Assembly: GCA_048884785.1 (NCBI GenBank)
Contig: JBHLQM010000064.1
Coordinates: 1 to 19,935 of the forward strand
Length of the DNA: 19,935 nt
Source: Candidatus Thorarchaeota archaeon
Lineage (GTDB): Archaea > Asgardarchaeota > Thorarchaeia > Thorarchaeales > Thorarchaeaceae
Direction of reading: 5' to 3'
Shown: piece by piece, positions 19-17,478 of the stretch
Numbering within the stretch: the stretch's first letter is position 1
Layout: every line of letters starts with the position of its first letter
Notes under the pieces: model-generated
What the model was told of the DNA's origin: nothing
The model's input: the letters and a program-made list of their open reading frames with translations, nothing else
The model's database searches: none
Made by a program: the position numbers and the translations under genes

Positions 19-25
19 TATAAAA
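19..25 (+). promoter_or_regulatory. Possible archaeal TATA box for the Lrp/AsnC gene
   Basis: TATAAAA at 19-25, about 40 nt upstream of the GTG at 64; supported by position and sequence only. Confidence 0.3.
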
Positions 26-63
26 GATGATATCAATAGGTAAGCTGATACATCTTCTGGCTA

Positions 64-987: not shown

Positions 988-1093
988 TCATCGCAGCTCT
1001 TTTGGGCCCTTGTATGTTGACTCTGCGGGTTCCTAGGCAAAGTAATAATTCATTTTGCCTCATATGATTCTCTTTAGGGGTGCAAGGCAGAGT

Positions 1094-1732: not shown

Positions 1733-1820
1733 TCTACCGGCTGAATATGCATTCTCAGCACTAAGCATAATCATCCAAGATATTAAGTACAACAAGCTAT
1801 CATTTGAAGGTGGGATTACT

Positions 1821-2030
1821 ATGACCTGCTATTTTAGGCATATTAACTGGATATTCGAAGATATGGGAATAGAAGTGACGAAGGAAAACAAGGCTGATAT
1901 CGACAAGAAAATCCATGGGCTTGTTGGAATAGAATACAAGAATTGCTCCTCTGCTTGGAAAGAGGTAAAGAGAAGATTGAGTGAAAATGAGCTTGGTTTT
2001 ATCGCCGATTTGAAGAAATTACTAAGCTAG
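1821..2030 (+). CDS. Small conserved hypothetical protein (69 aa, two Cys)
   Basis: ATG preceded by SD-like AAGGTGGG. MTCYFRH...GIEVTKENK.DID..IH..VG..YKNC...WKEVK resembles a small protein family I recall from anaerobic archaea; function unknown. Confidence 0.7.
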   Translation: MTCYFRHINWIFEDMGIEVTKENKADIDKKIHGLVGIEYKNCSSAWKEVKRRLSENELGFIADLKKLLS

Positions 2031-2050
2031 GACAACAATAATTTGAGAAG

Positions 2051-2076
2051 TGAGTTTCACTTCCTGATGAAACTCA
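2051..2076. terminator. Hairpin between convergent genes, probable bidirectional terminator
   Basis: Perfect 9-bp inverted repeat TGAGTTTCA (2051-2059) / TGAAACTCA (2068-2076) with an 8-nt loop, followed by TTTT on +, lying between the stops at 2030 (+) and 2091 (-). Confidence 0.6.
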
Positions 2077-2090
2077 TTTTCCTAGACAAA

Positions 2091-2981: not shown

Positions 2982-3125
2982 GATTCTATATTCTCCATCA
3001 AATGCCTAGATTGGCAACAGGTTTCATCTAGATAGTATAAAATAGAGTTCTTTTTGGCGCAATGAACTCAATGCCGAATTACAAATCTCCGGTCTCTTCA
3101 AAGATGTGTGCAGTCAAATGCGCTA

Positions 3126-3160
3126 TAAGAAAAAGAGTGAAAGAGGGGGAAATCCCCTCT
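3126..3160 (-). terminator. Intrinsic terminator-like hairpin plus U-tract downstream of the Gfo/Idh/MocA gene
   Basis: 7-bp stem AGAGGGG/CCCCTCT (3142-3160), followed on the minus strand by TTCACTCTTTTTCTTA, about 15 nt after the stop at 3176. Confidence 0.65.
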
Positions 3161-3175
3161 ATACTAGCAATTCCA

Positions 3176-4234
3176 CTACATGAGATCTGTTACAATCTTG
3201 TTCGACCATTTTTGTGCAGCAATTGCATCTTTATAGGTACAGGCTGGTTTCTCATTACCAAGACAGGCTTGGACAAAGTTAGTGATTAGCTGTTTGTGAC
3301 CCCAAATAAGTGGGCCCTTCCCCTCTACCTGCCAATTCTCCTTATCATCATCCTTGCCAAATAGGGTTACGTCAAAGACTTCCCGGTTAATCCTTGGAAT
3401 CCAATCAACAAGAATAGTCTTGCCATTATTTCCATAAATCTCGAACCTACTGAGATCCAGACCCTTTGCGACTGTTGATCCAACCATTGTAGTACCGACA
3501 ACGCCATTGGAGAACTTTATGATCCCTACAGTCTGATACCCCTTGAAATCGCTAATCCCTTCAATAGGCATGTAATTAGCAGTCCATTCAACATTTTCAA
3601 CCTCAGCATTGAAAAACCAGCGGAACATATCCATTGACCATACCGACAGCGTATAATCTGGATACCCTCCAGCTTTCTCAATATCCCAAGCCCAGCCGCT
3701 TAGTGGCCACTGGCTTGCCAGATCTTCTGCAGCAATGAATTCTCTAAATGTAATTGCAATGGGTTTTCCAATTGCACCACTATCCAAGAGTTCCTTGGCC
3801 TTGAGATAACCTGGACAGAATCTGAAATTCAAGATGGGCATTAGAACCACACCCTTCTTTTCTGCAATTTTGCCTAGTTCTTCGGCATTCTTGAGTTTTG
3901 GTGCTATTGGCATCTCTAGATAGACATGTTTTCCTGCCTCAAGAGCTTCTTTGCCCATTGGATAATGGAATGGTGTAGGTGTAGCAACACATACCGCATC
4001 GACATCAGGGTCTTTGCAGACATCACTCCAATCATAATAGATTTTGAGTTCCTGATTGTCCTTCTTAGCTAATTTCTCCTTCATTTCAAGTGCATACTTT
4101 TCACTCTCTCTACCCTTCCTAGCTAAGAGACCATACAATCGAGAGTTTGGTGCTTTGCGGAAAGATGGGACATGAGCGGCGCCACCGACGAAACCCACTC
4201 CAGCGCAGACTGTATTCAAAACTTTCTCAGTCAT
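3176..4234 (-). CDS. Gfo/Idh/MocA-family NAD(P)-dependent oxidoreductase (atypical active-site motifs)
   Basis: Rossmann GVGFVG, DPDVDAVCVATPTPFH, ALEAGKHVYLEMP, NFRF.P and G.IG.P motifs. ATG 4234 with upstream GAGG preferred over 4294. Confidence 0.88.
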   Translation of the reverse strand: MTEKVLNTVCAGVGFVGGAAHVPSFRKAPNSRLYGLLARKGRESEKYALEMKEKLAKKDNQELKIYYDWSDVCKDPDVDAVCVATPTPFHYPMGKEALEAGKHVYLEMPIAPKLKNAEELGKIAEKKGVVLMPILNFRFCPGYLKAKELLDSGAIGKPIAITFREFIAAEDLASQWPLSGWAWDIEKAGGYPDYTLSVWSMDMFRWFFNAEVENVEWTANYMPIEGISDFKGYQTVGIIKFSNGVVGTTMVGSTVAKGLDLSRFEIYGNNGKTILVDWIPRINREVFDVTLFGKDDDKENWQVEGKGPLIWGHKQLITNFVQACLGNEKPACTYKDAIAAQKWSNKIVTDLM

Positions 4235-4503
4235 TTTGTTCCTCGCCTTTTGTTTTCTGTGATTGCCAAAGAGAAGTTCCTGTAGAATAATCATCAGCTG
4301 TGTATATGCCAGACTATCTGCAATTACGACCCTCTGGTTTCACTTTGCGAGTCAATTATGGAAAACATCCGCCTTTTAAGCCCTAGGGCAAGAAGTGAGC
4401 ATAATACATCAAATGGTTTCATTTTCGAACTTGAAAGCTAGCATAATTGCCGATTTCAGACATTTTTTTGTGCCCGCATTCGAATATCTATTCGGAAGCA
4501 AAC

Positions 4504-5175
4504 CTAGAGTGCTTTCATAGCTCTGCTGACAAGAAACCAGCTGATATCTCCGAGCTGTTCATGTGGAAGATAGAATATTGAGTTGCTGTCGTATAGCAAT
4601 CTAACGCTTGCTGGGAATTCTTCGTCGTCCTTTTCAAAAGCAATCAAGATTTTCACCTTTGGAAGGAATAGAAGCTCAAATGCAAACTCACCAAAGTCTA
4701 CTCTCTTAGCTCCCATTTTTTCCAAAGCCTTAAACAATCCTTCTCTGTTTTCGACGAAAGCCTGTGTCAGAGCGTTGACATTTTCCTCATCAAATGAATA
4801 TCTGCACGCCCAAGAACCACGCAATGCACCAAACTTTACCCATTCATTTCCAATTCCCTTGTCTTTCGCCCTCGAATAGTAATAGAGATGTGGAATTATT
4901 CTGCTAGTATGGAAAGCGTCCCCAGTGAACAAGTCCATTGTTTCACCCGTGAAGAGGTTCACTCTTAGGCCAAGAATATTAACATGGTCTTTGCCGACAC
5001 CAAGTCTATTTCTAAGAGTCTTGATATCTTCGCCAAAATTCTCCCAGCTCCACATTGCAGAGCTTGAATCAAACTCCTCGATATTGAACCTTGAAGCAAG
5101 CTCGCGCGAGAGGCTCATCCAGTACTCCAGAATGTCGTCAGCCATTGCAATTCGGTCCATGTTTCCATCTGACAC
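4504..5175 (-). CDS. DUF3786-like protein
   Basis: C-terminal signature LPKVKILIAFEKDDEEFPASVRLLYDSNSIFYLPHEQL, plus HLYYY..A and WVKF. Starts 13 nt after the upstream stop; start is GTG 5175 or ATG 5160. Confidence 0.7.
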   Translation of the reverse strand: MSDGNMDRIAMADDILEYWMSLSRELASRFNIEEFDSSSAMWSWENFGEDIKTLRNRLGVGKDHVNILGLRVNLFTGETMDLFTGDAFHTSRIIPHLYYYSRAKDKGIGNEWVKFGALRGSWACRYSFDEENVNALTQAFVENREGLFKALEKMGAKRVDFGEFAFELLFLPKVKILIAFEKDDEEFPASVRLLYDSNSIFYLPHEQLGDISWFLVSRAMKAL

Positions 5176-5188
5176 CTATCAGTCTTTC

Positions 5189-5980
5189 TCAATGACCTTT
5201 TTCTTTCTCTATCTGATTCCTGCAATCTTCAATTCCTGTTGCCTCGCAGACGGCATATCTTGCATTATAGCCTGCAACATGGAGAAGTGCATCTCCAACC
5301 TCGCGATCCTTTGCCATTGATGCAGTACAGGGATAGGAATGATGCGCTTTTGCAATCTCATCGAATAAAGCATCTGTGTCACTGATTGATTTTCCTCTTA
5401 TCTTTTGGCTGACGTACCATGTGCATCCGCAGGGAGCAGACCTGAGAGGGCCTATCTCTGCAATAAACTGCCCCTTCATATCGACAAAATGGACTGGACG
5501 ACCCAATTTGTAGGTCTCTATGAATTCATCTATCAGCTTTCCCTCACCTAGTTCAAGCGTGCAGAAAGGCTTGGGAAACGCCGATTCAACTCCCATCTTA
5601 TTCAGAGTTTCCCTCACTTGTTCTCTCAAACCAGGTGGTACCCATGATGGGTCTTCAATTGGAACGAGGACAGCTTTTGCGCCAGTTGCTTCGACTAGAA
5701 TGTCGATTGATGCCAATAGATCATGATGAATTGCAACTACAAGTAGGATGTCACACTCAGTTAGTCTAATGTCTTTGAAGTATTCTTCAGGATCCTCAAT
5801 TATCGTGGGTGAAACTGACTCAACTTTTTGCGCGCCAACAATATCTCCGACAAATGAACCATATGTCTTCCTACATTCAGAACAAACTGGCTCGCAGCCA
5901 GTGCAGAAATTCTTGAACGAGATTAGATTTCCCAACACTCGTTCTGCAAAGACATCGCCATATACTGCAGCAATTCGCAA
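5189..5980 (-). CDS. DUF166 (COG1810)-like protein with an N-terminal Cys cluster
   Basis: Motifs HHDL, FPKPFCTL, RSAPCGCTWYV and HHSYPCTASM..D, plus N-terminal CTGCEPVCSEC. TTG 5980 preceded by SD GGTGA; the track's extension to 6253 overlaps the opposite-strand gene. Confidence 0.75.
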   Translation of the reverse strand: MRIAAVYGDVFAERVLGNLISFKNFCTGCEPVCSECRKTYGSFVGDIVGAQKVESVSPTIIEDPEEYFKDIRLTECDILLVVAIHHDLLASIDILVEATGAKAVLVPIEDPSWVPPGLREQVRETLNKMGVESAFPKPFCTLELGEGKLIDEFIETYKLGRPVHFVDMKGQFIAEIGPLRSAPCGCTWYVSQKIRGKSISDTDALFDEIAKAHHSYPCTASMAKDREVGDALLHVAGYNARYAVCEATGIEDCRNQIEKEKGH

Positions 5981-6120
5981 GACAATCACCCATAAAGTGT
6001 CAGGATGGTCGCATAACACTAAAAAAGGGTGATGTTTGCGGCTCAGAACCACAACAGAAATGTAATATGGACTACCCAATGAAACGGTGTAGAAAAACTG
6101 GGTACTAGGATGGCAAGAAT

Positions 6121-6516
6121 ATGGCCCTAGGCGACTTTCTCTTTCCGCACATCGAGGTGGAGCTAGTGATTGCTCATTCGTTTGAAGCCGATATAGCCGG
6201 GACTGGCGACAAGCTCTCTCAAGGCTACATGGATGTCGCCGCTCGTGTTGCACTAAATAAAGGTGATTTGCAGAAACTTGGATTACAGGACGGGAAGCAT
6301 GTCATACTAAAATCAAAAGCAGGTGCTGTTGTAGTCGCTGCCTTTGGAAGTGAAAAGGTTGCAGAGGGGTTGGCAGTGATGCCTCATGGACCATGGGCTT
6401 TGGCACTCGTTGCAGTACCCTCAGATGATTCTCCTCCAGTGCTTCATGGAGTTACAATTGCAGCCACTCGTACCAATGATGAGATCACTCGTCCGGAATC
6501 TCTTCTTGCTCCCTGA
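6121..6516 (+). CDS. FwdD/FmdD-like molybdopterin-dinucleotide-binding (double-psi barrel) protein, degenerate
   Basis: ARVALNKGDLQKLGLQDGKHVILKSKAGAVVV...EGLAVMPHGPWA follows the FwdD pattern (MNPEDM..LG...GD.V.V.S..G.VVV...G.V.IP.GPWAN); length is 131 aa. Confidence 0.75.
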   Translation: MALGDFLFPHIEVELVIAHSFEADIAGTGDKLSQGYMDVAARVALNKGDLQKLGLQDGKHVILKSKAGAVVVAAFGSEKVAEGLAVMPHGPWALALVAVPSDDSPPVLHGVTIAATRTNDEITRPESLLAP

Positions 6517-7837
6517 TCGATTTGATGACCTTCTTGGTATTTCCTCTCTCCAATTGAAGATGGACTCTAGGATTCTTTCTCAAGAAGTCCCTGATTTCTT
6601 GGACTGCTGCCATCGCCTTATCGCGCTCCCCATCAATGGAATCCCACCCTCTTCTCTCATTAGGTTTAACGCGTTGCCTTTCCACCGCATTAACAGTAAT
6701 ATCCCTTTCAAAGAGCTCGCTTGGCGGGGGTCCCTTTCCGACGACAGCATCGAAAAAGACCCTTCTTGCGCGTTCCCATTCTCTAGCTCTTTCGAGTTCT
6801 TCAACTACATATCCTTCTCTGTGGACCTCAAGGACTTCATAGGGGCAGGAATGTTCGCAGGCTCCACAATATACACAATTCTCGTCCCTTATGGCAATCT
6901 TATCTTCCGTCCCAGTTGGGTAGATGGCCTTCACAGGGCAGATGTTGAAGCAATTATTGCACCCTGTAGGGTCACATTTTTCCAGTTTCACTATTCTGAC
7001 TTCGCCTGCAAAAGGCTTGGTGACTTCAAGCGCATCATAAGGGCAGACCTCCGCACAAAGACCACACTTGACACATGTATCGTCATTGTGTGTAAGCTTG
7101 CCACTGATCTCAGGGTCCTTGATCTCTCTTGGGGACGATTCCGAGCAGGTCACCTCAATTGCCTCGTCTGGGCAAATTTTGGCGCAGAGACCACAGTAGT
7201 CACACTTCTCCTCAGTGACTCTTATTGCCACGGCTGGCCTAAAATCTGGAGGTTCTGCTGAGTCTGACCAAAATATCGTGATGGCTTCAGGACAGAGCAG
7301 TTCACATAGCCCGCAGAGAGAACACTTTTCTTCATCAATCTTGATAGTCCCCTTTGCATATTCCTCTCCCTCATATGTAACCAAGTCCACTTTCCTGTCA
7401 ACCTTAACATCTACATCAAGGGATTTTGTGGGGCATACTTTCGCACAAAGAAGACAAGGTTTGCATTTTTCCTCATCAATTGTGTGTACCCCGTCTATGC
7501 GGTTGAATTCGTTTACAGCCCCCTCTCCCTCATACTTTGCGTCAAATGCACGGAAGATACAGGCGGAATCACAGAGACCACAGAAAGTGCAGGCTTCAGG
7601 GTCAACATTCACAAGAGAAGCTCCCTCAATCAGCCCGGAGGCCATTTCTTTGACAGGTCCCATGGTGATGGCATCCCATGGACACGGAAGGCACAGATTG
7701 CACCCCACACATTTTGAAATCTCATGGTCAAGAGTCTTTGTCAGAAGTGAGGTCTTCCAGACAAGTCTTACCTTTCCATCGACAAGATCCATGGAAATTA
7801 CTGGCTTTTCACCAACTGAAACGCCATGTTTCTCCAT
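6485..7837 (-). CDS. fwdF: FwdF/FmdF-type polyferredoxin, 8 x [4Fe-4S]
   Basis: Eight ferredoxin motifs: CVGCNLCLPCP, CTFCGLCDSACI, CKPCLLCAKVCP, CSLCGLCELLCP, CDYCGLCAKICP, CVKCGLCAEVCP, CDPTGCNNCFNICP, CVYCGACEHSCP. ATG 7837 lies 4 nt after the hdrA stop with GGTG upstream. Confidence 0.8.
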   Translation of the reverse strand: MEKHGVSVGEKPVISMDLVDGKVRLVWKTSLLTKTLDHEISKCVGCNLCLPCPWDAITMGPVKEMASGLIEGASLVNVDPEACTFCGLCDSACIFRAFDAKYEGEGAVNEFNRIDGVHTIDEEKCKPCLLCAKVCPTKSLDVDVKVDRKVDLVTYEGEEYAKGTIKIDEEKCSLCGLCELLCPEAITIFWSDSAEPPDFRPAVAIRVTEEKCDYCGLCAKICPDEAIEVTCSESSPREIKDPEISGKLTHNDDTCVKCGLCAEVCPYDALEVTKPFAGEVRIVKLEKCDPTGCNNCFNICPVKAIYPTGTEDKIAIRDENCVYCGACEHSCPYEVLEVHREGYVVEELERAREWERARRVFFDAVVGKGPPPSELFERDITVNAVERQRVKPNERRGWDSIDGERDKAMAAVQEIRDFLRKNPRVHLQLERGNTKKVIKSIREQEEIPDE

Positions 7838-7841
7838 GTAT

Positions 7842-10256
7842 CTATACACCGCCTGCCTTCTGGGCTGTCTTCTCAAGTTCCTTGCCAAGAGGTCCTATTC
7901 TTGTGACTTCATTCACGAACTCAGTTACCTGTTCTGCAAATCTATCAGCTTCTGATGCCGAGGTACTTCCGAAGTACAGGCGCCTCTCGTCGATTCCTGC
8001 GGCCTTGAGAACATCCTTCAGATTTTCCGTCCTATCCATAGCATGTTTTGCGCCTGACCGATAGTGACAGTCTTGTACGTGGCATCCCATGACAGCAACA
8101 CCATCAGCCCCCTCAGCAAATGCTGTGAGCAGTGTATCTGCGTTCAGGCGGCCTGTACAGGGTACCTGAATCGGAATCATATTTGCTGGATATCTCATGC
8201 GTGCAGTTCCTGCCCTGTCAGCAGCTCTGTAGGCACACCATCGACATAAATAGCCCACAATAGCTGGTCTGTTGGGATTGAATTGAATTGCTGCCCTAGT
8301 TGCGTTCTCTAGCTGTTCATTGGTCAAACATGGCAAATCAAGAGCGCCTGACGGGCAAGCGGCCACACACGCTCCGCACGCACGGCATGCAACCAGATCA
8401 ATATCTGGTACCTCCTCTCCGTTGAACTTGATTGCTTTGGATGTGCAGACTTGTTCGCAGAGTCTGCACGCAATGCATAGATCAACATCAAAGGATGGCA
8501 CACAAGCGTCTGTTATCACCTCACCTGAAGCCAGCAATGTCTTTACTTTAGAAGCAGCAAGACCTGCGTGTGCTACAGTGTCTGCTATATCCTTAGGACC
8601 CTGAGCCACTCCAGCCAAGAAAACACCCCTTGACTCGGTGCTGCTTGGCGCAAGTTTCGGATGCTGTTCAAGAAAGAATCCGTTCTCATCTAGAGGTGCT
8701 TTGAAAAGTCTAGCAAGTTCTGGATTGCTTGGTTCTGGATCCATTCCCACCATGAGAACCACTAGGTCGACCTCCATCTCCATCATTCTTCTGAGAAGGG
8801 TGTCTTCGGCTCTTATAGTGGTCTTCCGCGTTACCGGATCCTGAAAGACTTCGCCAATTGAACCTCGAATGAAATTGACTTTGTATTCCTCTGCAGCTCG
8901 GACATAGAGTTCTTCTTGTCCTTTGCCAAAGGTTCTCATATCAGTATAGAAGACGAATGCCTCGCTTTCAGGTAGCTGTTGTTTGAGCTGGATAACTTCC
9001 TTTACAGCTGCAGAGCAACAGGCTCTACTACAATATGGTCGTTGGAATCTATGCGACCTGCTCCCAACACAAGGAGCAAAGACAATGCGATGTGGGGTTG
9101 TGCCATCTGAGGGTTTTACTAGTTTTCCCCCGCTTGGTCCTCCAGGGTTCATTAGACGTTCCAATTCAACAGAGGTCACCACATCCGGAATTTCTCCATA
9201 ACCCAGTTCCTCAACAATTGTAGGATTAAATGGTTTGAAGCCAGTCGCTACAATTACCGCACCTACATCAAGTATCTCTGTATCATCAAGCTCATCATAA
9301 CGGAGTGATTTTGGTTCACACACTCCGGCGCACGACTGACATCCAATACAATTCTCAATATCGATATACGGAGCTTTGGGGACTGCATCGACAGTAGGAC
9401 GCACCATTGCTCTCCGTTTTCCAAGACCGTTGTTGTATTCATCAATCACATCTACAGGACATACTTCGATACATCGATTGCATCCGGTGCATGTATCAAT
9501 GTCAACATATCTTGCCGCTTTTCTAACGGTGACACGGTATTGCCCAACTCTACCTTTCACCTCAATAACATCGGCAAGGGTAATGATTCGGATAGATGGA
9601 TGTCTTGCCGCCCGTGCCATCATTGGGCCGAGGATACATATACTACAGTCAAATGTTGGAAAGAGCTTGTCGAATTTCGCCATATGCCCTCCAATGAAGC
9701 CTTCTCTCTCCACAATGACAGTTTCAATTCCAGCATCTGCAAGCTCTAGAGCTGCAGTGACTCCAGCGACTCCTCCACCCACAACGAGAGCTCGTTGCAC
9801 AATAGGCATCTCGCGTGTCGGAATTGCATAGGACTCCCTCACTCTCGCGATACCAGTATCAATGATCGCAGCCGCCTTTTCTGTAGCGGCTTCGGGGTCA
9901 TCATAATGCACCCAACTGCATTGCTCTCTTATATTCGCCATGTGCAGATATCCTGGATTGATACCAGCTTCTTTCACAGCGTCTGAAAACAGTTCGCTGT
10001 GTAGCAGTGGCGAGCAGCCTGCAATCACAACTCTCTCTGATTTGCTTTTCTTGATTTTATCAATTAAATCGAACACTCCCTGCTCCGAGCAGAGATGATC
10101 GTCAACATCCACGAGAGGAATTCCTTGTTTTTCATATCTTTCTCTCAATCTATCGATATCTATCGTTTCTGCAATATTGGAGCCGCAGCGACACAAGAAG
10201 ACGGCTAGTTTATCCTTACCTTCTGTTTTTCTAGTGGTAGGCTTCTTGCGGCTCAC
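7842..10256 (-). CDS. hdrA: Heterodisulfide reductase subunit A fused to an MvhD/FlpD [2Fe-2S] domain
   Basis: N-terminal VFLCRCGSNIA..LCS..AGCSP..ANIREQCSWVH; FAD motif GGGVAG; FPTFDCSICILGP; two ferredoxin domains; ELERL; CVGSR..YCSRACC; GPKDI. C-terminal MvhD motifs YLCRWCAY, PCTGR, GADGV and GCH..DCHY. GTG 10256 with SD AGGTGA preferred over 10265. Confidence 0.93.
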   Translation of the reverse strand: MSRKKPTTRKTEGKDKLAVFLCRCGSNIAETIDIDRLRERYEKQGIPLVDVDDHLCSEQGVFDLIDKIKKSKSERVVIAGCSPLLHSELFSDAVKEAGINPGYLHMANIREQCSWVHYDDPEAATEKAAAIIDTGIARVRESYAIPTREMPIVQRALVVGGGVAGVTAALELADAGIETVIVEREGFIGGHMAKFDKLFPTFDCSICILGPMMARAARHPSIRIITLADVIEVKGRVGQYRVTVRKAARYVDIDTCTGCNRCIEVCPVDVIDEYNNGLGKRRAMVRPTVDAVPKAPYIDIENCIGCQSCAGVCEPKSLRYDELDDTEILDVGAVIVATGFKPFNPTIVEELGYGEIPDVVTSVELERLMNPGGPSGGKLVKPSDGTTPHRIVFAPCVGSRSHRFQRPYCSRACCSAAVKEVIQLKQQLPESEAFVFYTDMRTFGKGQEELYVRAAEEYKVNFIRGSIGEVFQDPVTRKTTIRAEDTLLRRMMEMEVDLVVLMVGMDPEPSNPELARLFKAPLDENGFFLEQHPKLAPSSTESRGVFLAGVAQGPKDIADTVAHAGLAASKVKTLLASGEVITDACVPSFDVDLCIACRLCEQVCTSKAIKFNGEEVPDIDLVACRACGACVAACPSGALDLPCLTNEQLENATRAAIQFNPNRPAIVGYLCRWCAYRAADRAGTARMRYPANMIPIQVPCTGRLNADTLLTAFAEGADGVAVMGCHVQDCHYRSGAKHAMDRTENLKDVLKAAGIDERRLYFGSTSASEADRFAEQVTEFVNEVTRIGPLGKELEKTAQKAGGV

Positions 10257-10485
10257 ATGTTTCACCTGATTGATAGGGCAAACCGTTTGTTTTGTACCTC
10301 GCTACGGTGCCGCTGAGATTGTATAAGTTTGCCTCTAGAGGACACGAAGTACCATATATTCTGTTTTCCTGTAGGAATTTAATCCGTGTAAGATATTATC
10401 TGCACCCACCGTATAGTTCATGTACAAAACAGGGAATGGCTTGAGGAGTGTCACAATCAAGTATTGATTGTGGAGGCATATTATA
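10257..10485. promoter_or_regulatory. Divergent promoter region between hdrA-fwdF and fwdG-fwdB-cooC
   Basis: About 230 nt non-coding gap between divergent starts; minus-strand BRE/TATA-like GGCAAACTTATACA near 10319-10333; SD GGAGG at 10472-10476. Confidence 0.45.
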
Positions 10486-10944
10486 TTGAAACTCAGCCCC
10501 ATGGAACTATACAATTTGCTGCCAAAGACTAACTGCAGGTTATGTGGGCCCAAGACGTGTATGGCATTTGCAACAAAGCTCGCGCTTGGTGACGTTTCAC
10601 CTGATGAATGTCCTCCTCTCTTGGAAGCAGGGTTTGAGCAGAACCTGCAAAAGATTCGTGATTTAGTTGCTCCATTACAATCAACTGCAGAAACAGGCGT
10701 AAAGCTTGATGAAAGTAAATGTACTGGCTGTGGCAATTGTGTTGTTGTGTGCCCAGTTGATATTGCAGTTGAGCCGCCAACAGGCATTGGCAAAGCTGCC
10801 AAGGATGGTTCGACGGTATTCAGAGTTGAGAATGGAATTTCAAAGATAATCAATTTGGAGAAATGCAGACGATTTCCACCTGACAGGCTTAATTGTCGTG
10901 TCTGTGAGCAATATTGCTGTACTAATGCTATTGAGATATGGTAG
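10486..10944 (+). CDS. fwdG: FwdG-type ferredoxin with an N-terminal CdhE/RnfB-type Fe-S domain
   Basis: N-terminal LLPKTNCRLCGPKTCMAFA..L.....ECP. C-terminal CTGCGNCVVVCPV...G.G......VFRVENG...INLEKC...CRVCEQYCCTNAI is typical of FwdG. TTG 10486 follows SD GGAGG. Confidence 0.75.
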   Translation: MKLSPMELYNLLPKTNCRLCGPKTCMAFATKLALGDVSPDECPPLLEAGFEQNLQKIRDLVAPLQSTAETGVKLDESKCTGCGNCVVVCPVDIAVEPPTGIGKAAKDGSTVFRVENGISKIINLEKCRRFPPDRLNCRVCEQYCCTNAIEIW

Positions 10945-10953
10945 GTGGTGAAT

Positions 10954-12177
10954 ATGGAGGATATAATCTGCAGCGGTTGTTCACTTCTCTGTGATGATGT
11001 TTCTGTTATGGTTGAAAAGGGGGAAGTCAGTTCGATGGGATTATGCCGACTCGGTCATGCTCACCTGACAGAGTCATTCAAGCTCCAAGAACCAACTGCA
11101 ATTATTCGAGAGGATGGGAAATCGCGTAGAGTTTCTCTCGAGGAGGGTATCTCTAATGCCGTCGAGATTCTGAAGAACAGCCAGAAGTCAACTCTACTGT
11201 ATGGATGGGCAAACTCATCAAATGAAACAATCAAAGAAGGCCTTCTTCTTGCGGAATCTCTTGGAGCCCAATTTGAGGCTCTGACCGGAATGGGTGCGAA
11301 TCAGTCGTTGGCCCATGATCTACACAAGTTCAAGCTTGATGTGGACTTGGAGTACGTCAGGAACAATGGAGAGTTCATAATCTATTGGGGATCCGACCCG
11401 ACCGAGAGTCTTCATAGACACCCAAGCAGATTTGCCGTATTGCCTAGAGGTGACAAAATCCCAGAGGGGATAGAGAGCCGAATAATCGGAGTTGTTGATG
11501 TTCGAGAAACAGAAACCATGAAGATGGCAAACCATCGGATAAAGATCCCAATTGGCACTGATGCAGAATTCATCAAACCAATAATATCTGAACTCTCCGG
11601 AAAAGGAGCAATAACTCAGGCAGTTCTAGGCATTCCAGCGGCGGAGATGCTCGGACTTGTGAGAGGTCTTCAGAAATCAGACTGCACAGTGATATTCTAT
11701 GGAAGTGGTATTCTAAATTCAGGCCATGCACAGAAAAACCTTCAGGCAATCAAGGAGCTTGTTGATACTCTCCGTTCCTTAGGAAAGGAGGCATATGCAC
11801 TTCCCATGTTTCCGGAAGCCAATTCGATGGGCGCCATAACCGCTTTGAAGGATGCAGCATCTGGTTCTAGTGTCTTTCTCAATATTATCAATGGGAGCTT
11901 TGCATCCGCACTTGTTGCAGACGATGATGTTCTTGCGGCAATTCCTGGCCCCGCAGCCAAGGCACTTGCTGGGACCAGCATAATCTATATTGGCTCTCCA
12001 GGAACATTCACTGATTCTGTGGCATCTGTTTCATTCCACCTTCCAAATCCTATTACAAGCGGATCCGGGTCCATGGTTCGTATTGACATGATTTCTGCAG
12101 AGTTTAGAGCCTGGCAGGGAAGCAAGAGCATTGTAAGCAAAGCTGAGTTGCTTAACAAGATCCGCAAGGCGATATAA
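10954..12177 (+). CDS. FwdB/FmdB-like protein lacking the W/Mo ligand and catalytic residues (putative non-catalytic homologue)
   Basis: FwdB framework: CSGCSLLCDD..CRLG, LLYGW, YWGSDP..SLHRH.SR, VVDVRETET, FYGSG, LPM, GSMVRID. The SVCHGP and MRGHYN motifs are replaced. ATG 10954 follows SD GGTGGTGA. Confidence 0.85.
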   Translation: MEDIICSGCSLLCDDVSVMVEKGEVSSMGLCRLGHAHLTESFKLQEPTAIIREDGKSRRVSLEEGISNAVEILKNSQKSTLLYGWANSSNETIKEGLLLAESLGAQFEALTGMGANQSLAHDLHKFKLDVDLEYVRNNGEFIIYWGSDPTESLHRHPSRFAVLPRGDKIPEGIESRIIGVVDVRETETMKMANHRIKIPIGTDAEFIKPIISELSGKGAITQAVLGIPAAEMLGLVRGLQKSDCTVIFYGSGILNSGHAQKNLQAIKELVDTLRSLGKEAYALPMFPEANSMGAITALKDAASGSSVFLNIINGSFASALVADDDVLAAIPGPAAKALAGTSIIYIGSPGTFTDSVASVSFHLPNPITSGSGSMVRIDMISAEFRAWQGSKSIVSKAELLNKIRKAI

Positions 12178-12197
12178 GAACAAAGGAGAATCAAGAC

Positions 12198-13001
12198 ATG
12201 AAAGTAGCAGTTGCAGGAAAAGGCGGAGTCGGCAAGACAACGGTGGCAGGTACCCTAGCCCGGCTACTCGGACAGGATGGCTTGCATATCCTTGCAGTCG
12301 ATGCCGATCCTAGTTATACACTCTGGTCTGCCATAGGAATTCCAGCGGAAGTGGCCGCCAAGATTGTTCCTCTCACCGAGAATGCCGAGTTGGTTGAAGA
12401 ACGACTGCAGATTAAAGAAGTGGGTCCGACTTCCACTGGTGTCTTTAAGCTCAATCCTCGTGTTGACGATCTTGCAGCCAAATTTGCCATTAGAGGGCCC
12501 GATAATGTAGACCTGCTTGTTGCAGGAACTGTTGATGTGGGTGGTTCTGGTTGCATGTGTCCATCTGCGACTCTGCTCAAATCTCTCATGCGGCATCTTG
12601 TGATTGGAACAGATGAGGCATTCATCATGGACATGGATGCGGGTGTGGAAAACTTGGGCCGTGGAACAACCAAAGGTATGGATGCGCTCATAGTCGTTAC
12701 AGAGCCAGGACGAAGAGCACTTGACATTCTCGGGAAAATCAGAAATCTTGCAGGTGATATTGGAGTAGGGCGGGTGTTTGCTGTAGGAAATAAGATAGCA
12801 ACTCCTGAAGATGAGCAGATGATACGAGATCGAGTAGAATCTGAAGGGATACCAATTTTGGGTATGATTCCTCTTGACGACTCAATCAAAGAGGCAGATA
12901 GAAGAGGAATGGCTCCAATAGACTTGGAACCCAAATCTCCAGCGATGATGGCAATCAGAGAAATCAAGCAGAGAATCGTTCAAGAAACCAAAACCGCCTA
13001 G
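12198..13001 (+). CDS. cooC: CO dehydrogenase/ACS nickel-insertion ATPase (CooC/AcsF family)
   Basis: Deviant Walker A GKGGVGKTT, DADP, FKLNPRVDD, Ni-binding GCMCP, DMDAGVENLGRG and GNK; SD AAGGAG upstream. Confidence 0.92.
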   Translation: MKVAVAGKGGVGKTTVAGTLARLLGQDGLHILAVDADPSYTLWSAIGIPAEVAAKIVPLTENAELVEERLQIKEVGPTSTGVFKLNPRVDDLAAKFAIRGPDNVDLLVAGTVDVGGSGCMCPSATLLKSLMRHLVIGTDEAFIMDMDAGVENLGRGTTKGMDALIVVTEPGRRALDILGKIRNLAGDIGVGRVFAVGNKIATPEDEQMIRDRVESEGIPILGMIPLDDSIKEADRRGMAPIDLEPKSPAMMAIREIKQRIVQETKTA

Positions 13002-13135
13002 GTGCTTATTACGCTAATGTAAGTGAAAAGTGAGTAAAGTGACAATTTGTAACCAATCACATCATTTTAGTTAATATTCTTATATATTAATGATTTTTTT
13101 TCATCGCGGCGGATTCATAACTTTCATATGCACCA
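13002..13135 (+). promoter_or_regulatory. AT-rich intergenic region, probable cdh operon promoter/operator
   Basis: TTATATA box at 13080-13086 inside the inverted repeat TTAATAT-N6-ATATTAA (13071-13090); three AAGTGA direct repeats (13021-13042); T8 tract after the box. Confidence 0.5.
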
Positions 13136-15520
13136 ATGATTCAGCCAAAACTACTACGCACAGGAACTGAGCGAGCTATGAAGAAGAAAGCTTACTTCAA
13201 AGCAGACGAAGCGGACACAGGTTTGGGTCATTTCAAAGGTCTCGAAGTCAGAATCGGCGAGATTGTTGATGACGAGTGGGACGAGCCAATGGGTCCTACA
13301 CCAATGCCCGGTCTGACAACTCTGCGATCGTGGGATCACAAACTTCTTACAAAATACCAGCCGTCATACATGCCATATTGTCAAGTATGCTGCCTCTGTA
13401 CAATGGGCAAATGTGATTTGTCTGGAACAAAGAGAGGTGCCTGCGGTATAGACATGAAAGCACAACAGGGCAGGATTGTACTGGCAGCGGCCAATATAGG
13501 CACAGCAGCGCATTTGGCACACTCCAGACACCTGATTGATCATCTAATAGATGAGTATGGCCCTCGGACCAAACTTATTCAGGGTCCCGGCACCGAGATT
13601 CATGCTCCTATTTCACGATTGGTAACAGGAATGCGGCCTCGTACTTTGGAGGATGCAAGCATTATCATTGACTATTGTGAGAGCCAACTGGCTCATGGTC
13701 TCTCGGCTACGGCAACTGGACAAGAAGGGAGCTGGCTAGACTTTGAGAGCAAGGTCTTCCATATGGGGATGATTGACCATCTCGCGCTGGAAATCGCTGA
13801 TTTGGCACAGGTTTCAACTCTTGATATGCCCCAAGCAGATCCAGATGCACCTCTTGTACGGGCCGGTCTCGGAAATATGGATGCAAGTAAGGCAACTATA
13901 TTGACCATAGGGCACAATATTGTGCCTGCCGCAGCCATAACAGACTATATCACTGAGAAGAAACTTGGTGAGGTGGTAGAAGTTGGTGGGATTTGCTGTA
14001 CCGCGTGGGACATAACACGGCGTGATAAGAATGCAAAGGTCATCGGTCCTATCTCATGGCAGCTTAGATTCATTCGAAGCGGTGGTGCTGACATTGTTGT
14101 TGTTGACGAGCAGTGTGTCCGCACGAATGTTGTTGATGAAGCCAAGAAAGTAATGGCTCCAGTCATATCAACCAGCGACAAAGCGGTGATGGGACTTCCT
14201 GATAGATCAGATGACTCAGTTGACTCCATTGTTAATGAATTGGTTTCTGGAAAGATACCGGGGGCCTATATTCCTGACCATCGAAAGGTTGGAGAGGTTG
14301 CCGTCAAAGTAGCACTAGCAATGAAGCCAATTCGTGAAAAGAAGAAATTCTTGCCCAGCAAGAAGCAGATTCAGAAGATGGCTGAAGAGTGCAAGAAATG
14401 CATGGAATGTGTGCGAGCATGTCCCAATGACCAGAACGTGCAGGAAGCCGTTCTTGCCGCAGCTACAGGCAACATGGAGCCACTGCGAGAGATCTACAGC
14501 AACTGTATCGGGTGTGCTCGATGCGAGTCCGCCTGTCCAAATGAATATGACCTACACAGCTGGATGGTTGTCGCAGGGGAGAAAGACTGTGACAATGAAA
14601 CCTACATGGTGCGAACCGGTAGGGGTGCAGTTCAGGATACAGAGATTAGAAGGGTAGGTCAACCAATCGTCTTTGGAGAGATCCCCGGTGTAATTGCACA
14701 TGTTGGGTGCGCTAACTATCCTGGTGGAGGCCAAGATGTACATGACATGGCTGAGGAGTTCGCGAAACGAAGATTCATCATCGTGACCTCAGGATGTGCC
14801 GCGATGTCTGCTGGCATAGTGAAAGATGAGAACGGACAATCAATCTATGAGCGAAGAAGTGGCGAGTTTGATGCAGGAAGCGTGGTCAATGTAGGATCCT
14901 GTGTTGCTAACTCACACATTGCTGGTGCAGCCATCAAAATTGCTGCCATTTTCGCGAAAAGAAACCTTCGTGGCAATTATGCAGAGATTGCAGATTACAT
15001 CTACAATCGAGTAGGAGCGGTAGGAATCTCATGGGGTGCCATGTCCCAGAAAGCAGCTGCGATTGCTGCAGGATTCTGGAGGCTCGGTGTTCCTGTGATT
15101 GTTGGACCCCATGGTTCCAAGTACCGCAGAATGCTGCTCGGAAATCCAGAAAATGAGAGGGACTGGATGGTCTATGATGCCAGAACTGGAGAACGGATGC
15201 TGACTGCACCCGGACCGGAACATCTCTTCTATGCAGCAGAAACAAAACAAGAAGCGATGGTTATGACCGCAAAGCTCTGCATCAGGCCAAATGATACAGG
15301 AAAGGGACGATCTATCAAACTCAGCCACTACATAGATCTTCATGAAACACACTACGGATTCTTCCCAGAAGATATCTGGAAATACATCCGTCGTGAGTCA
15401 GATATACCTATCACGCTCAAGGATAGAATTCTGACTCAAATGAAGGAGAACAAGTGGAAGGAGCGACCGATTCCTGACCCAACACTGCTCAAGGAGCAAA
15501 TCATGGGAGGTGGTACATAA
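13136..15520 (+). CDS. cdhA: ACDS alpha subunit (archaeal Ni-CO dehydrogenase)
   Basis: EPMGPTP; CQVCCLCTMGKCDL..RGACG (B/D clusters); C-cluster ligand motifs GHN, GICCT, DEQC, GCAN, SGC, GSC; two extra ferredoxin motifs CKKCMECVRACP and CIGCARCESACP. Alternative start at ATG 13178. Confidence 0.97.
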   Translation: MIQPKLLRTGTERAMKKKAYFKADEADTGLGHFKGLEVRIGEIVDDEWDEPMGPTPMPGLTTLRSWDHKLLTKYQPSYMPYCQVCCLCTMGKCDLSGTKRGACGIDMKAQQGRIVLAAANIGTAAHLAHSRHLIDHLIDEYGPRTKLIQGPGTEIHAPISRLVTGMRPRTLEDASIIIDYCESQLAHGLSATATGQEGSWLDFESKVFHMGMIDHLALEIADLAQVSTLDMPQADPDAPLVRAGLGNMDASKATILTIGHNIVPAAAITDYITEKKLGEVVEVGGICCTAWDITRRDKNAKVIGPISWQLRFIRSGGADIVVVDEQCVRTNVVDEAKKVMAPVISTSDKAVMGLPDRSDDSVDSIVNELVSGKIPGAYIPDHRKVGEVAVKVALAMKPIREKKKFLPSKKQIQKMAEECKKCMECVRACPNDQNVQEAVLAAATGNMEPLREIYSNCIGCARCESACPNEYDLHSWMVVAGEKDCDNETYMVRTGRGAVQDTEIRRVGQPIVFGEIPGVIAHVGCANYPGGGQDVHDMAEEFAKRRFIIVTSGCAAMSAGIVKDENGQSIYERRSGEFDAGSVVNVGSCVANSHIAGAAIKIAAIFAKRNLRGNYAEIADYIYNRVGAVGISWGAMSQKAAAIAAGFWRLGVPVIVGPHGSKYRRMLLGNPENERDWMVYDARTGERMLTAPGPEHLFYAAETKQEAMVMTAKLCIRPNDTGKGRSIKLSHYIDLHETHYGFFPEDIWKYIRRESDIPITLKDRILTQMKENKWKERPIPDPTLLKEQIMGGGT

Positions 15521-15521
15521 A

Positions 15522-16070
15522 ATGATGCAATCAGTACCATGGCAGACTGGGGAAATATGTGGTCCAGACGCTGCCAAGACTCTGAACAAAGCTGATGTTC
15601 TCAAGAGGGATTTCAAATTATGTAAGAAACCTCTTCTTATAGTTGGTTCAGAAGCTGTGAAAGAGAAATACGACAAAGGCACAATGGTTGATTATATCAT
15701 TGAGCTATCCAATGCAGGAAAAATTCCTGTCATAGCGACGGGAGGAGCAATAAAGGCATTCCTTGAGAAGGGATTCACGAATGCCAAATCCATGGGTGCA
15801 ATGGAAGTAGCTTATTTCCTACAAGACACTGAGTGGAAAGGGCCTCATAAAACAGGTCCCTATGACATGATCCTTACCTATGGAATGCCATACTTCATGC
15901 AGTGGACACTTCTGTCTGCTGTGATGAACTTTGCCCCACATATTACTGCAATCGCATTGGGGCGACACTATCAGCCACATGCCAAATGGAGTTGTCCAAA
16001 TCTCAAAGAGAAGAATTGGCATGAACTCCTGAAAGATATACTCGCTCTAGTGGGAGGAGGAAGCACATAG
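15522..16070 (+). CDS. cdhB: ACDS epsilon subunit
   Basis: Follows cdhA; PWQ, KKPLLIVGS, IPVIAT, LQDTEWKG...G.YD and YQPHAKWSCPN motifs; ATG 15522 after SD GGAGGTGG. Confidence 0.92.
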   Translation: MMQSVPWQTGEICGPDAAKTLNKADVLKRDFKLCKKPLLIVGSEAVKEKYDKGTMVDYIIELSNAGKIPVIATGGAIKAFLEKGFTNAKSMGAMEVAYFLQDTEWKGPHKTGPYDMILTYGMPYFMQWTLLSAVMNFAPHITAIALGRHYQPHAKWSCPNLKEKNWHELLKDILALVGGGST

Positions 16071-16071
16071 C

Positions 16072-17478
16072 ATGTCATTTGAAGATATACCAGTAGACAT
16101 TGGCGTTGTCTATGAAGGAGAACGCGTGAGAGGCAAGGACATGTTTGTCGAGCTCGGCGGTCCCAAAATGGAGAAGAAGTTCGAGCTGGCACTTGCCAGA
16201 GGCATGGACGAGATTGAAGATGAAAAGATCAAAATAATTGGTCCAGACCTCAAAGACATGGAACCGGAGAGCTATCATCCCCTCGGCATCCTCATTGAAG
16301 TTGCTGGGAAGGACATTGAGCCTGACCTTGAGGGAGTTATTGAACGAAGAATCCACGAATATGTGAACTTTGTTGAAGGTATGATGCACCTGAACCAGAG
16401 ATATGACATCTGGATTCGACTCAGCAAGAAGTCATTTGACAAGGGCTTCAACTCACTCGAATATCTGGGTAAGGTCTTGATTCGACTCTTTAAGAGTGAG
16501 ATGAATATCATCGAGAAGATTCAGGTGACATTCATCACAGACCCGAAAGAGGTCGAAGGCAGATATGAAGAGGCCATAAACAGATACAACGCTCGCGATG
16601 AACGGGCACGAGGTCTGAGTGATGCTGATGTTGATACCTTCTATGGGTGTTCACTCTGTCAATCATTTGCACCAACACACGTCTGCACCATTACTCCACA
16701 GAGATACGCCAACTGTGGAGCTATTAGCTGGTTTGACGGGCGTGCCGCGGCCAGAGTCGATCCAAAAGGTCCACTTTATGCAATTCCCAAGGGAGATACA
16801 ATTGATGACTTCCGTGGCGAATACACAGGAGTCAATCAAGCATATGTTGAGAAATCCCTGGGCAAGGTGAACTCGGTCGCACTTTATAGCGCATTCGAGA
16901 AACCTCACACAAGCTGCGGATGCTTTGAGGCAATAGCATTCGTAATTCCAGAGGTTGACGGACTTGGGATAGTTCACAGAGACTTCAAGGGCGAAACTGT
17001 CAATGGATTGCCATTCTCAAGCATGGCAGACTCTACAGCCGGTGGACGCCAAGTTCCAGGATTCCACGGGCTCTCAATTGAATACATGAGGTCTCCAAAA
17101 TTCCTTCAGGTTGATGGAGGATGGGACAGAGTAGTATGGCTCCCGGAGTCTATTAAGGAGAGAGTGGTTGATTTCATACCTGATGCAATCCGTGATAAGA
17201 TTCCGACGGAATCGGATGCTATGAGTATTGGTGACCTTAAGGCTTTCCTGAAAACAAAGAACCACCCTGTAGTTGGGCGATGGACTGAGATTGCTGAAGA
17301 AGATGAGGAATTACCCGGAGATATGACCCGCGGTGATGACTATGTTTCAGTTCCCGGAGAACTGACTGCAATGGTTGGAGGCGTTGGCGGTGGCCTTGAG
17401 ATTATTTTCAAAAATGCCAAGATATACGCCGAACGGGTCATCATCCGAAAGAAAGATGTTGGTGGCAAGAAGAAATGA
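16072..17478 (+). CDS. cdhC: ACDS beta subunit (acetyl-CoA synthase)
   Basis: YEGERVR, ELGGP, LEGVIERRIH, HLNQR; A-cluster ligands GCSLCQSFAPTHVC, CGAISW and PHTSCGCFE. Confidence 0.97.
   Translation: MSFEDIPVDIGVVYEGERVRGKDMFVELGGPKMEKKFELALARGMDEIEDEKIKIIGPDLKDMEPESYHPLGILIEVAGKDIEPDLEGVIERRIHEYVNFVEGMMHLNQRYDIWIRLSKKSFDKGFNSLEYLGKVLIRLFKSEMNIIEKIQVTFITDPKEVEGRYEEAINRYNARDERARGLSDADVDTFYGCSLCQSFAPTHVCTITPQRYANCGAISWFDGRAAARVDPKGPLYAIPKGDTIDDFRGEYTGVNQAYVEKSLGKVNSVALYSAFEKPHTSCGCFEAIAFVIPEVDGLGIVHRDFKGETVNGLPFSSMADSTAGGRQVPGFHGLSIEYMRSPKFLQVDGGWDRVVWLPESIKERVVDFIPDAIRDKIPTESDAMSIGDLKAFLKTKNHPVVGRWTEIAEEDEELPGDMTRGDDYVSVPGELTAMVGGVGGGLEIIFKNAKIYAERVIIRKKDVGGKKK

Follow-up and report, generated by a model that had tools for sequence, protein, structure and literature searches.

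Formylmethanofuran dehydrogenase (Fmd/Fwd) of methanogens is known to form supercomplexes with heterodisulfide reductase (Hdr), such as the Fdh-Hdr-Fmd complex of M. hungatei (7BKB) and the (Mvh-Hdr)2-Fmd4 complex of M. marburgensis (9SW6), in which several catalytic Fmd units are connected to HdrA by the polyferredoxin FmdF (PMC13580544). A further gene cluster, fwdG2B2D2, has been named in M. acetivorans, where fwdB2 is constitutively expressed (PMC2838876). As for CO dehydrogenase/acetyl-CoA synthase (CODH/ACS), a PorE/F-like protein is encoded in the cdh operon of M. maripaludis (bioRxiv 10.1101/2024.03.05.583561), and the COGs of HdrA/C/B and MvhD are associated with Wood-Ljungdahl Ni-CODH contexts (PMC6344411). 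A degenerate Fwd-derived module was not described in any of the literature searched. Here, we analyzed such a gene set in a stretch of 19,935 nucleotides from a Candidatus Thorarchaeota archaeon (GCA_048884785.1, contig JBHLQM010000064.1, positions 1 to 19,935; in the following "the window"), which represents contig C64 of a genome of 3.6 Mb with a completeness of 91% and a GC content of 43.7%. It encodes an HdrA-MvhD fusion, a FwdF-like polyferredoxin, a long FwdG and degenerate paralogs of FwdB and FwdD (FwdB* and FwdD*) next to the genes for CODH/ACS. From these sequences we infer, with a probability of roughly 45%, a non-catalytic electron module of Hdr/Fwd origin that serves CODH/ACS. The gene arrangement, the residue losses, the purifying selection, the synteny and the co-occurrence of FwdB* with cdhA were observed directly, whereas the assembly of the proteins, CdhA as electron partner, the way the electrons run and the choice of a high-potential partner by HdrA would follow from homology and gene context. 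The genes in question are the following:

6121 to 6516, plus strand: FwdD*, a FwdD2-type paralog of 131 aa without Cys (Pfam Molydop_binding)
6485 to 7837, minus strand: FwdF-like polyferredoxin with eight [4Fe-4S] motifs (NCBIfam FwdF); the open reading frame (ORF) reaches 7888, the likely start being the ATG at 7837
7842 to 10265, minus strand: HdrA-MvhD fusion, a HdrA2-type flavoprotein of 807 aa (NCBIfam HdrA2 plus FlpD/MvhD, FAD and Fer4 domains)
10486 to 10944, plus strand: FwdG-long ("FeS158", 152-158 aa; PF04060 plus Fer4); the ORF opens at 10468, the likely start being the TTG at 10486
10945 to 12177, plus strand: FwdB*, a FwdB2-clade paralog of 410 aa (TIGR03129, 224 bits)
12198 to 13001, plus strand: CooC-type Ni-insertion ATPase with a CbiA/ParA-type P-loop, found between fwdB* and cdhA in all Thorarchaeial loci
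13136 to 15520, plus strand: cdhA (TIGR00314, 1090 bits)
15510 to 16070, plus strand: cdhB (cdhABCDE as a whole: matches to the Pfam families CO_dh, CdhC and CdhD)
16072 to 17478, plus strand: cdhC
17475 to 18668, plus strand: cdhD
18635 to 19933, plus strand: cdhE, with its stop codon beyond the end of the window

The gene content given in the original prediction (hdrA-mvhD, an eight-cluster fwdF, fwdG-, fwdB- and fwdD-like genes, cooC and cdhABCDE) was recovered by profile matches, and all ORFs of the module are intact. Neither fwdA, fwdC, hdrB, hdrC, mvhA/G or another hydrogenase gene nor fdh was found within the window by Pfam and NCBIfam profile scans, as had been stated, and the components that define a Hdr-Fmd/Fwd supercomplex, namely a HdrBC site, a Mvh or Fdh donor and catalytic FmdABCD, are missing from it. 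The claim that the module genes lie directly upstream of cdhABCDE holds insofar as all of them belong to one island, but hdrA and the polyferredoxin gene run divergently from the cdh operon, and fwdD* is located on the strand opposite to these two. Specifically, the minus strand carries genes for a metallo-β-lactamase (MBL)-fold protein, a GFO/IDH/MocA-family oxidoreductase, a DUF3786 protein, a DUF166 protein, the polyferredoxin and HdrA-MvhD, and the plus strand carries fwdD* and, beyond a divergent spacer of ~200 bp, fwdG-long, fwdB*, cooC and cdhABCDE, the latter being the sole copies in this genome.

The loss of catalytic residues concerns FwdB*, whose score of 224 bits on TIGR03129 lies below the curated cut-off of 327.8. 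Cys118, His119 and Arg288 of M. wolfeii FwdB are replaced by Gly, Ala and Phe, with the canonical SVCHGP aligned opposite GMGANQ and PMRGHYN opposite PMFPEAN. The cluster motif CxxCxxxC...C is kept, its cysteines C9, C12, C16 and C34 being invariant in 94 of 94 sequences of an alignment of FwdB*/FwdB2 and canonical FwdB proteins. Among Thorarchaeial orthologs the former active-site loop differs (GMGANQ, EMGSMQ, SLGALR), which speaks against the gain of another catalytic residue there, and a loop of ~20 residues close by is deleted in most of them. Judged by this variability and deletion, catalysis at the old site seems to be truly abandoned. The AlphaFold2 model of FwdB* (pLDDT 95.8) contains both the MopB domains I-III and the N-terminal [4Fe-4S] motif of FwdB, and it resembles FwdB of 8RJA, 5T5I and 7BKB (TM-score 0.87) more closely than NuoG (0.70-0.75) or FhcB (0.66). 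FhcB (6S6Y) and NuoG/Nqo3 of complex I are MopB-fold proteins that have lost molybdopterin catalysis, the Fe-S clusters of NuoG serving as electron relay. A TGA reported inside several matches, considered as a possible selenocysteine codon of FwdB*, turned out to terminate the fwdG-long gene upstream.

That both FwdB* and FwdD* lack cofactor as well as catalytic motifs, as originally proposed, is borne out for the catalytic residues of FwdB* and is not established for the cofactor motifs. The best-conserved block of this protein consists of YWGSDP..HRH and VDVRETETMKMAN, which correspond to MopB nucleotide-site-type motifs (YWGSDP..HRH and VDVRxTETMKMAN were compared as the nucleotide-binding type). 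The pattern YWGxDP..HPRH was dropped as a marker for pterin binding, since a bacterial Cys-less group of FwdB homologs retains it too and it is hence not diagnostic. FwdD* matches Molydop_binding (PF01568) with E = 3e-12 and 46.9 bits (cut-off 26.8), scores 50 bits on the NCBIfam FwdD model (cut-off 175), and keeps the Molydop_binding signature and the GPWA motif, as expected of a separate MopB domain IV subunit of ~130 aa. Its matches in the PDB are FwdD-2 (2KI8), which is the best solved relative, and 5T5I_D. The fwdD* gene is convergent with the polyferredoxin gene, the 3′ ends of the two overlap, and its strand and position are constant across all orthologous loci.

In contrast to the catalytic residues, every Fe-S ligand of the module is retained, which is in accordance with the proposal that the electron wire was kept and its catalytic end was not. 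The polyferredoxin scores 226.9 bits on the NCBIfam FwdF model (cut-off 375; model positions 7-330 of 336 aligned) and contains eight Cys groups, matching the definition of FwdF by eight [4Fe-4S] motifs in ~350-450 aa. Its 32 ligand cysteines are all present in 13 of 13 orthologs ranging from Thorarchaeia to Methanolobus; a paralog was not found in its own genome. A 33rd cysteine outside the eight motifs, Cys248 in the numbering of the 467-aa ORF, is kept in 12 of these 13 orthologs and might act as an inter-subunit ligand. The HdrA-MvhD fusion covers positions 2-777 of the 777 positions of the HdrA2 model (NF040770) with 892.6 bits, below the cut-off of 1100 (the Methanolobus ortholog reaches 1398 bits), carries the FlpD/MvhD domain at residues 669-791, and is 66-79% identical among Thorarchaeial orthologs.

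FwdG-long was only partly described by its initial annotation as fwdG: it possesses a FwdG-type 2x[4Fe-4S] domain, but this is preceded by an additional single-cluster domain (PF04060) of the CdhE/AcsC/RnfB type, which the solved FwdG chains 5T5I_G and 9SFI_U (80-82 aa) do not possess. Residues 77-158 match FwdG chains (9sfi_U, 2.6e-9; 5t5i_G, 9e-7), and residues 9-57 match the [4Fe-4S] N-terminus of the large subunits of corrinoid Fe-S proteins and of RnfB, with the N-terminal domain of AcsC/CfsA as PDB match. Across 68 aa, this N-terminal region has ~50% identity with the N-terminus of CdhE from the same genome. Twelve cysteines are invariant in FwdG-long, which suffices for three clusters, and its gene adjoins a FwdB2-type gene at nearly all loci examined.

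A search with FwdG-long revealed that the pair of fwdG-long followed by fwdB extends beyond Asgard archaea to Bathyarchaeia (Hecatellales), Methanomethylicota, Archaeoglobi and the cultured genera Methanolobus and Methanococcoides. In a quick IQ-TREE phylogeny, the FwdB partners of FwdG-long form one clade, termed FwdB2, apart from canonical FwdB (both clades with an SH-aLRT support of 95). FwdB* belongs to FwdB2 by its placement, by the lack of Arg288 and by the position of its gene directly 3′ of fwdG-long, and canonical FwdB is joined by the bacterial Cys-less group, which we took as Fhc-like; the suggested FwdB/FhcB tree therefore places FwdB* away from both. Arg288 is lost in all members of FwdB2, and Methanosarcinales and Archaeoglobi carry Gln or Leu instead of the His.

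The members of this clade can be arranged in a graded series. At its start, Borrarchaeum possesses fwdD-fwdA convergent on polyferredoxin-hdrA, which in turn is divergent from fwdG-fwdB, and its FwdB keeps the Cys-His pair. Here, fwdA comes after fwdD, and this arrangement explains why fwdD* of Thorarchaeia stands on the other strand, namely as what remains of a former fwdD-fwdA operon. In a second step, represented by the Asgard families f6 and f33, a Promethearchaeote and Hecatellales, the locus has no fwdA and carries hdrC-hdrB behind the polyferredoxin gene; cdh is part of the same locus in three of these four cases, and the short Hecatellales contig shows none. Of the FwdB2 proteins of this step only three are complete, as that of the Promethearchaeote lies past a contig end; all three keep His119, and Cys118 is kept in f6 and f33 and is Tyr in Hecatellales (SLYHGY). 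In the last step, comprising family f14 and then family f1, to which the window belongs, neither the Cys-His pair (EY, then G/S-x-G) nor hdrCB within the locus remains, and the module has a fixed place with the DUF166/DUF3786 genes on one side and cooC-cdhABCDE on the other. On sequence grounds, the Thorarchaeial module is not an isolated invention; within the widespread clade of FwdG2B2D2 plus HdrA(MvhD)-polyferredoxin, it has degenerated furthest. Its designation as a new system was thus overstated, since the clade also occurs in cultured Methanolobus.

The neighborhood proved to be conserved in relatives, as the five-gene core is syntenic in Thorarchaeia of family f1, in the Asgard families f14, f6, f28 and f33, in Hecatellales and in a Promethearchaeote. 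Homologs of FwdB* were found nearly exclusively in metagenome-assembled genomes (MAGs) of Thorarchaeota, Sifarchaeia and Promethearchaeota. More than 120 ortholog clusters of FwdB* (50-66% identity), almost all of them Thorarchaeotal, have intact reading frames throughout. Within one genus, dN/dS amounted to 0.03-0.14 for FwdB* and 0.06-0.14 for FwdD*, compared to 0.01-0.055 for FwdG-long and HdrA, although dS was saturated (>1 or undefined) in all pairs, so that these values are rough upper-level indications; polyferredoxin pairs with locus L021 were excluded because an out-of-frame segment gave nonsense values. The ratios are well below 1 and point to purifying selection, as asked for by the dN/dS check on the two subunits. 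Over the same genome pairs, FwdB* diverges faster than canonical FwdB (41-60% vs 68-73% identity). Taken at face value, these comparisons indicate that FwdB* and FwdD* are selected, under looser constraint than a catalytic subunit.

The link to CODH/ACS is indicated by several arrangements. In family f6, a single-strand operon fwdG-fwdB-hdrA/mvhD-polyferredoxin-hdrC-hdrB-cooC-cdhAB is present, and at locus L060 cdh is located on the opposite side of the module, which means that the association survives rearrangement. Among 86 genomes of the family of the window, FwdB* and cdhA were both present in 40 and both absent in 39; the seven mismatches were mostly due to contig ends, assembly gaps or a second cdhAB copy, and no clear case of FwdB* without cdhA was found among the 86. 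About 20 genomes of this family keep canonical fwdB without FwdB* and without cdhA, which shows that FwdB* follows cdhA and not canonical fwdB. A fwdB* remnant in one cdhA-less genome (G368) was rejected as a sign of decay, as runs of N interrupt the locus and mark an assembly gap. The proposed connection of the module to CODH/ACS is thereby borne out by the f6 operon and by the occurrence of FwdB* with cdhA, with CdhA as the putative physical partner.

The module would descend from a Hdr-coupled formylmethanofuran dehydrogenase of the "Fwd2" type. By homology with the solved Hdr-Fmd supercomplexes, HdrA-MvhD, polyferredoxin, FwdG-long, FwdB* and FwdD* are expected to form one complex, with HdrA-MvhD as flavin site for electron bifurcation or confurcation and with a chain leading from the ferredoxin domains of HdrA via the polyferredoxin and FwdG-long to the cluster of FwdB*. 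This chain would comprise eight clusters in the polyferredoxin, three in FwdG-long and one in FwdB*/FwdD* beside a degenerate former W/Mo site, and, lacking this site, would have no catalytic end of its own. Formyl-methanofuran would no longer be made from CO2 by the Thorarchaeial module; FwdB* and FwdD* most likely survive as a scaffold and one relay cluster that position the G and F ferredoxins. The module may feed low-potential electrons into the reduction of CO2 to CO or collect them during acetyl-CoA cleavage. A more specific version, in which a supercomplex of Thorarchaeia, related Asgard archaea and Bathyarchaeia hard-wires HdrA bifurcation to CODH via polyferredoxin and FwdG-long on a dead FwdB*/FwdD* scaffold, allowing CO2-to-CO reduction without free ferredoxin, is conceivable but appears doubtful.

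Several observations weigh against a dedicated electron module for CODH/ACS. HdrA has neither hdrBC nor a hydrogenase partner in the locus. FwdG-long also serves as G in apparently functional, fwdA-containing Fwd operons of Borrarchaeum, the Asgard family f15 and a Thermoproteote, so that its domain resembling the corrinoid Fe-S protein (CoFeSP) is not a CODH-specific adaptor. In Altiarchaeota, a complete canonical fwdG-A-C-B set stands straight after cdhE, an example that the gene linkage could reflect nothing but co-regulation of the Wood-Ljungdahl pathway. Furthermore, the co-occurrence of FwdB* and cdhA is supportive but not decisive, and weak as an independent line of evidence, because adjacent genes can be lost in one deletion or with one missing contig and the genomes are related. 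Finally, the loss of the pterin from FwdB* is unproven given the retained motifs and the retained FwdD*, and the module might serve the canonical Fwd, as it holds the only FwdF- and FwdG-like genes of the genome.

The latter point leads to the question of which enzyme the module feeds. A search for separate canonical genes revealed fwdD-B-A on contig C59, with a FwdB of 529.7 bits on TIGR03129, and fwdC on contig C77 of the same genome, which implies that FwdB*/FwdD* are not the Fwd of this cell; fwdA and fwdC were each found once by the searches run. Outside the window, the genome also encodes ~22 CCG-domain proteins, several HdrA paralogs and [NiFe] hydrogenase genes, and a search for mcrA gave no match. 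The best match to module-type HdrB has 32-34% identity (contig C8) vs 35-60% among module HdrBs, which is ambiguous, and no ortholog-level copy was identified in this genome. As the main rival explanation, it is worth considering that the module is the Hdr and polyferredoxin half of a Hdr-Fwd supercomplex feeding canonical FwdABCD, and possibly CODH too, with FwdB*/FwdD* as a dead structural copy nucleating F and G and with the adjacency to cdh due to co-regulation only. The canonical fwdDBA set comes without F or G, a single FmdF of methanogens can bridge HdrA to several catalytic Fmd units (PMC13580544), canonical fwd genes are found within a few kb of the island in some Thorarchaeia, and relatives exist with fwdA inside the locus (L051). 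This explanation nevertheless seems rather unlikely, as it would not account for the ~20 family genomes with canonical fwdB but neither FwdB* nor cdhA, nor for the lack of a clear FwdB* without cdhA, and FwdG-long adjoins FwdB*/FwdB2 at nearly all loci examined but was not seen adjoining canonical fwdB, the nearest case being the Altiarchaeotal locus L063 with fwdA and fwdC in between.

The remaining explanations differ in what is assumed for the former active site. Arsenite oxidase binds its molybdenum-bis(molybdopterin guanine dinucleotide) cofactor without a protein ligand, so the loss of the Cys need not mean loss of the pterin, and FwdB*/FwdD* could still bind pyranopterin, with or without W/Mo, and carry out a different HdrA-driven redox reaction. 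Such a function would fit the conservation of the nucleotide-binding-type motifs, the selection on FwdD* as the cofactor-capping domain IV, and the alteration of the site across the whole FwdB2 clade (no Arg288, changes of the His), which suggests non-canonical chemistry from the start. It is hard to reconcile with the variable loop and the nearby deletion in Thorarchaeia, with the faster evolution of FwdB* relative to canonical FwdB and with the presence of the first motif in the bacterial Cys-less group, so that we consider it improbable. An association of FwdB*/FwdD* with FwdA and FwdC as an Fhc-like formyl-methanofuran hydrolase exchanging free formate, the alternative already named in the original prediction, is disfavored by our data and appears very improbable. 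FhcB does show that a FwdB homolog can exist that lacks the catalytic residues, 6S6Y is among the fold matches, and fwdA and fwdC are present elsewhere in the genome. Yet the Fhc-like group falls into the canonical FwdB clade, 6S6Y_B gave no sequence match at E <= 0.001 and a lower TM-score than FwdB, and FwdB* tracks cdhA instead of canonical fwdB, which is adjoined, together with fwdD, by the only fwdA found. In addition, FhcA, FhcC and FhcD (Ftr), with which an FhcB-type subunit is encoded, have no counterparts among the neighbors in the window, and a hydrolase can do without a [4Fe-4S] cluster, a polyferredoxin and HdrA, which are the best-conserved features of the module and tie FwdB* to a flavin/Fe-S wire. 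Least credible of all is that FwdB* and FwdD* are decaying, pseudogene-like remnants without function: the loss of all three catalytic residues and an evolution faster than that of neighboring genes would agree with this, but the intact ORFs, the low dN/dS values, the invariant cluster cysteines and the complete, confidently predicted fold do not.

The surroundings of the module comprise the following additional features:

3176 to 4294, minus strand: GFO/IDH/MocA-family oxidoreductase, conserved island flank (Pfam)
4504 to 5175, minus strand: DUF3786 protein, conserved island flank (PF12654, E = 1.7e-23), syntenic in Thorarchaeia
5189 to 5971, minus strand: DUF166 protein (PF02593, E = 9e-49)
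10266 to 10485, no strand: intergenic region separating hdrA from the divergent operon of fwdG-long, fwdB*, cooC and cdh (read directly)

A DUF166 gene is needed for CODH/ACS-dependent autotrophy in M. maripaludis, as shown by genetics (bioRxiv 10.1101/2024.03.05.583561), and the protein is probably an accessory factor of CODH/ACS. With cooC on the other side, the module hence sits between CODH/ACS accessory genes. The DUF166 ORF runs to 6253 (354 aa) and would overlap fwdD* by 133 nt, with the family match beginning at residue 97 and orthologs called at 260 aa; judging from this, the true start is probably near 5971 and the N-terminal extension spurious. The GFO/IDH/MocA protein is 81-88% identical across Thorarchaeial orthologous loci and thus better conserved than HdrA, and a homolog is also found beside cooC-cdh in a Bathyarchaeote (L072:1622-2554). 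Upstream of the island, the window encodes a protein with two AsnC/Lrp-type helix-turn-helix domains (64-987, plus strand), a SnoaL-like protein (1055-1732, plus strand) and the MBL-fold protein (2091-2981, minus strand); in other Thorarchaeia, nikR and cbiMQ (Ni/Co uptake) occupy this position. The intergenic region contains TATAAG at ~10322, and a GGAGG lies ahead of the TTG at 10486. At 10408-10423, it holds an element (ACCGTATAGTTCATGT) that the spacers of orthologous loci retain in part, in the form ATACCGGATAATTCTTGT; this might represent a regulatory site that these loci have in common.

Further arrangements were noted around cdh genes elsewhere. The Altiarchaeota MAG locus L063 (2807-14066) reads cdhA-C-cooC-D-E followed by fwdG-long, fwdA, fwdC and canonical fwdB (SHCHGP, PMRGHYN), and in a Methanobacteriota MAG (L065) a FwdG-long homolog lies between cdhD and cdhE. 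In genus g12, some genomes possess two cdhA-cdhB pairs, the second of which is located away from cooC and the module (L040, i.e., G375:C21 10155-13048; G377:C94; G372:C15). Canonical fwdA or fwdB is located a few kb from the island ends in several Thorarchaeia (L022:19-978; L043:2-1066; G317:C8:2173-3450), so that Wood-Ljungdahl genes are clustered beyond the extent of the window. In family f14, one or two large ORFs (~456-460 and 565-574 aa) that match neither Pfam nor NCBIfam separate hdrA-mvhD from the polyferredoxin gene (L025:13703-15427, plus strand; L026:3058-4428 and 4509-6206, minus strand; L027:4124-5506, minus strand) and are possible lineage-specific partners of the module. In the same family, genes for an amidohydrolase of ~400 aa (Amidohydro_1, not FwdA-like) and a PEMT/ICMT-like membrane methyltransferase stand between cooC and cdhA (L025:6388-7593 and 7707-8345, minus strand; L026:13272-15149, plus strand).

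Asgard archaea are the nearest known relatives of eukaryotes. Their predicted acetogenic/organotrophic metabolism hinges on the flow of low-potential electrons to or from the Wood-Ljungdahl enzymes, for which a HdrA/polyferredoxin module in the CODH/ACS island would, if our interpretation is correct, provide a concrete and testable answer. FwdBD would then also represent a clear case of an enzyme kept as a non-catalytic Fe-S scaffold, similar to NuoG in complex I. The doubtful hard-wired supercomplex would, if real, constitute the CODH/ACS counterpart of methanogen Hdr-Fmd that arose by exaptation of a dead enzyme. Moreover, the graded series bears on the unexplained fwdG2B2D2 and hdrA-polyferredoxin genes of Methanosarcinales, which are genetically tractable in cultured organisms.

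Compared to the methanogen Hdr-Fmd/Fwd supercomplexes (7BKB, 9SW6), the module shares homologs of HdrA, MvhD, F, G, B and D; it differs in that its locus is devoid of FmdA/C, HdrBC and a Mvh or Fdh donor, in that the W/Mo ligand and the catalytic residues are lost, in the extra CoFeSP-type domain of its G subunit and in the location of its genes in a CODH/ACS island. FhcB and NuoG are more distant from FwdB* than FwdB is (TM-score of 0.66-0.75 vs 0.87), the FhcB-like group belongs to the other clade, and Fhc comes without FwdD, polyferredoxin and HdrA. With the PorE/F-like and Hdr-like genes associated with CODH/ACS, the module has in common a dedicated carrier or a Hdr-like unit, but Fwd-derived B, D, F and G subunits are missing from those gene sets. 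The closest similarity is to fwdG2B2D2 of Methanosarcinales (Methanolobus vulcani, Methanolobus sp. ZRKC3), which likewise consists of a FwdB2-clade protein, a FwdG-long of 152-158 aa and FwdD2, lacks fwdA and fwdC in the cluster, and is accompanied in Methanolobus by a HdrA2-type fusion and a FwdF-like polyferredoxin. However, the Methanosarcinales FwdB2 keeps the Cys ligand (SFCQGP) and reaches 467 bits on TIGR03129, whereas FwdB* has Gly and reaches 224 bits. In Methanolobus, hdrA(mvhD)-polyferredoxin is separated from fwdG2B2D2 by ~5 kb with unrelated genes and is not located beside cdh, while in Thorarchaeia the two gene sets are divergent neighbors fused to the cdh island.

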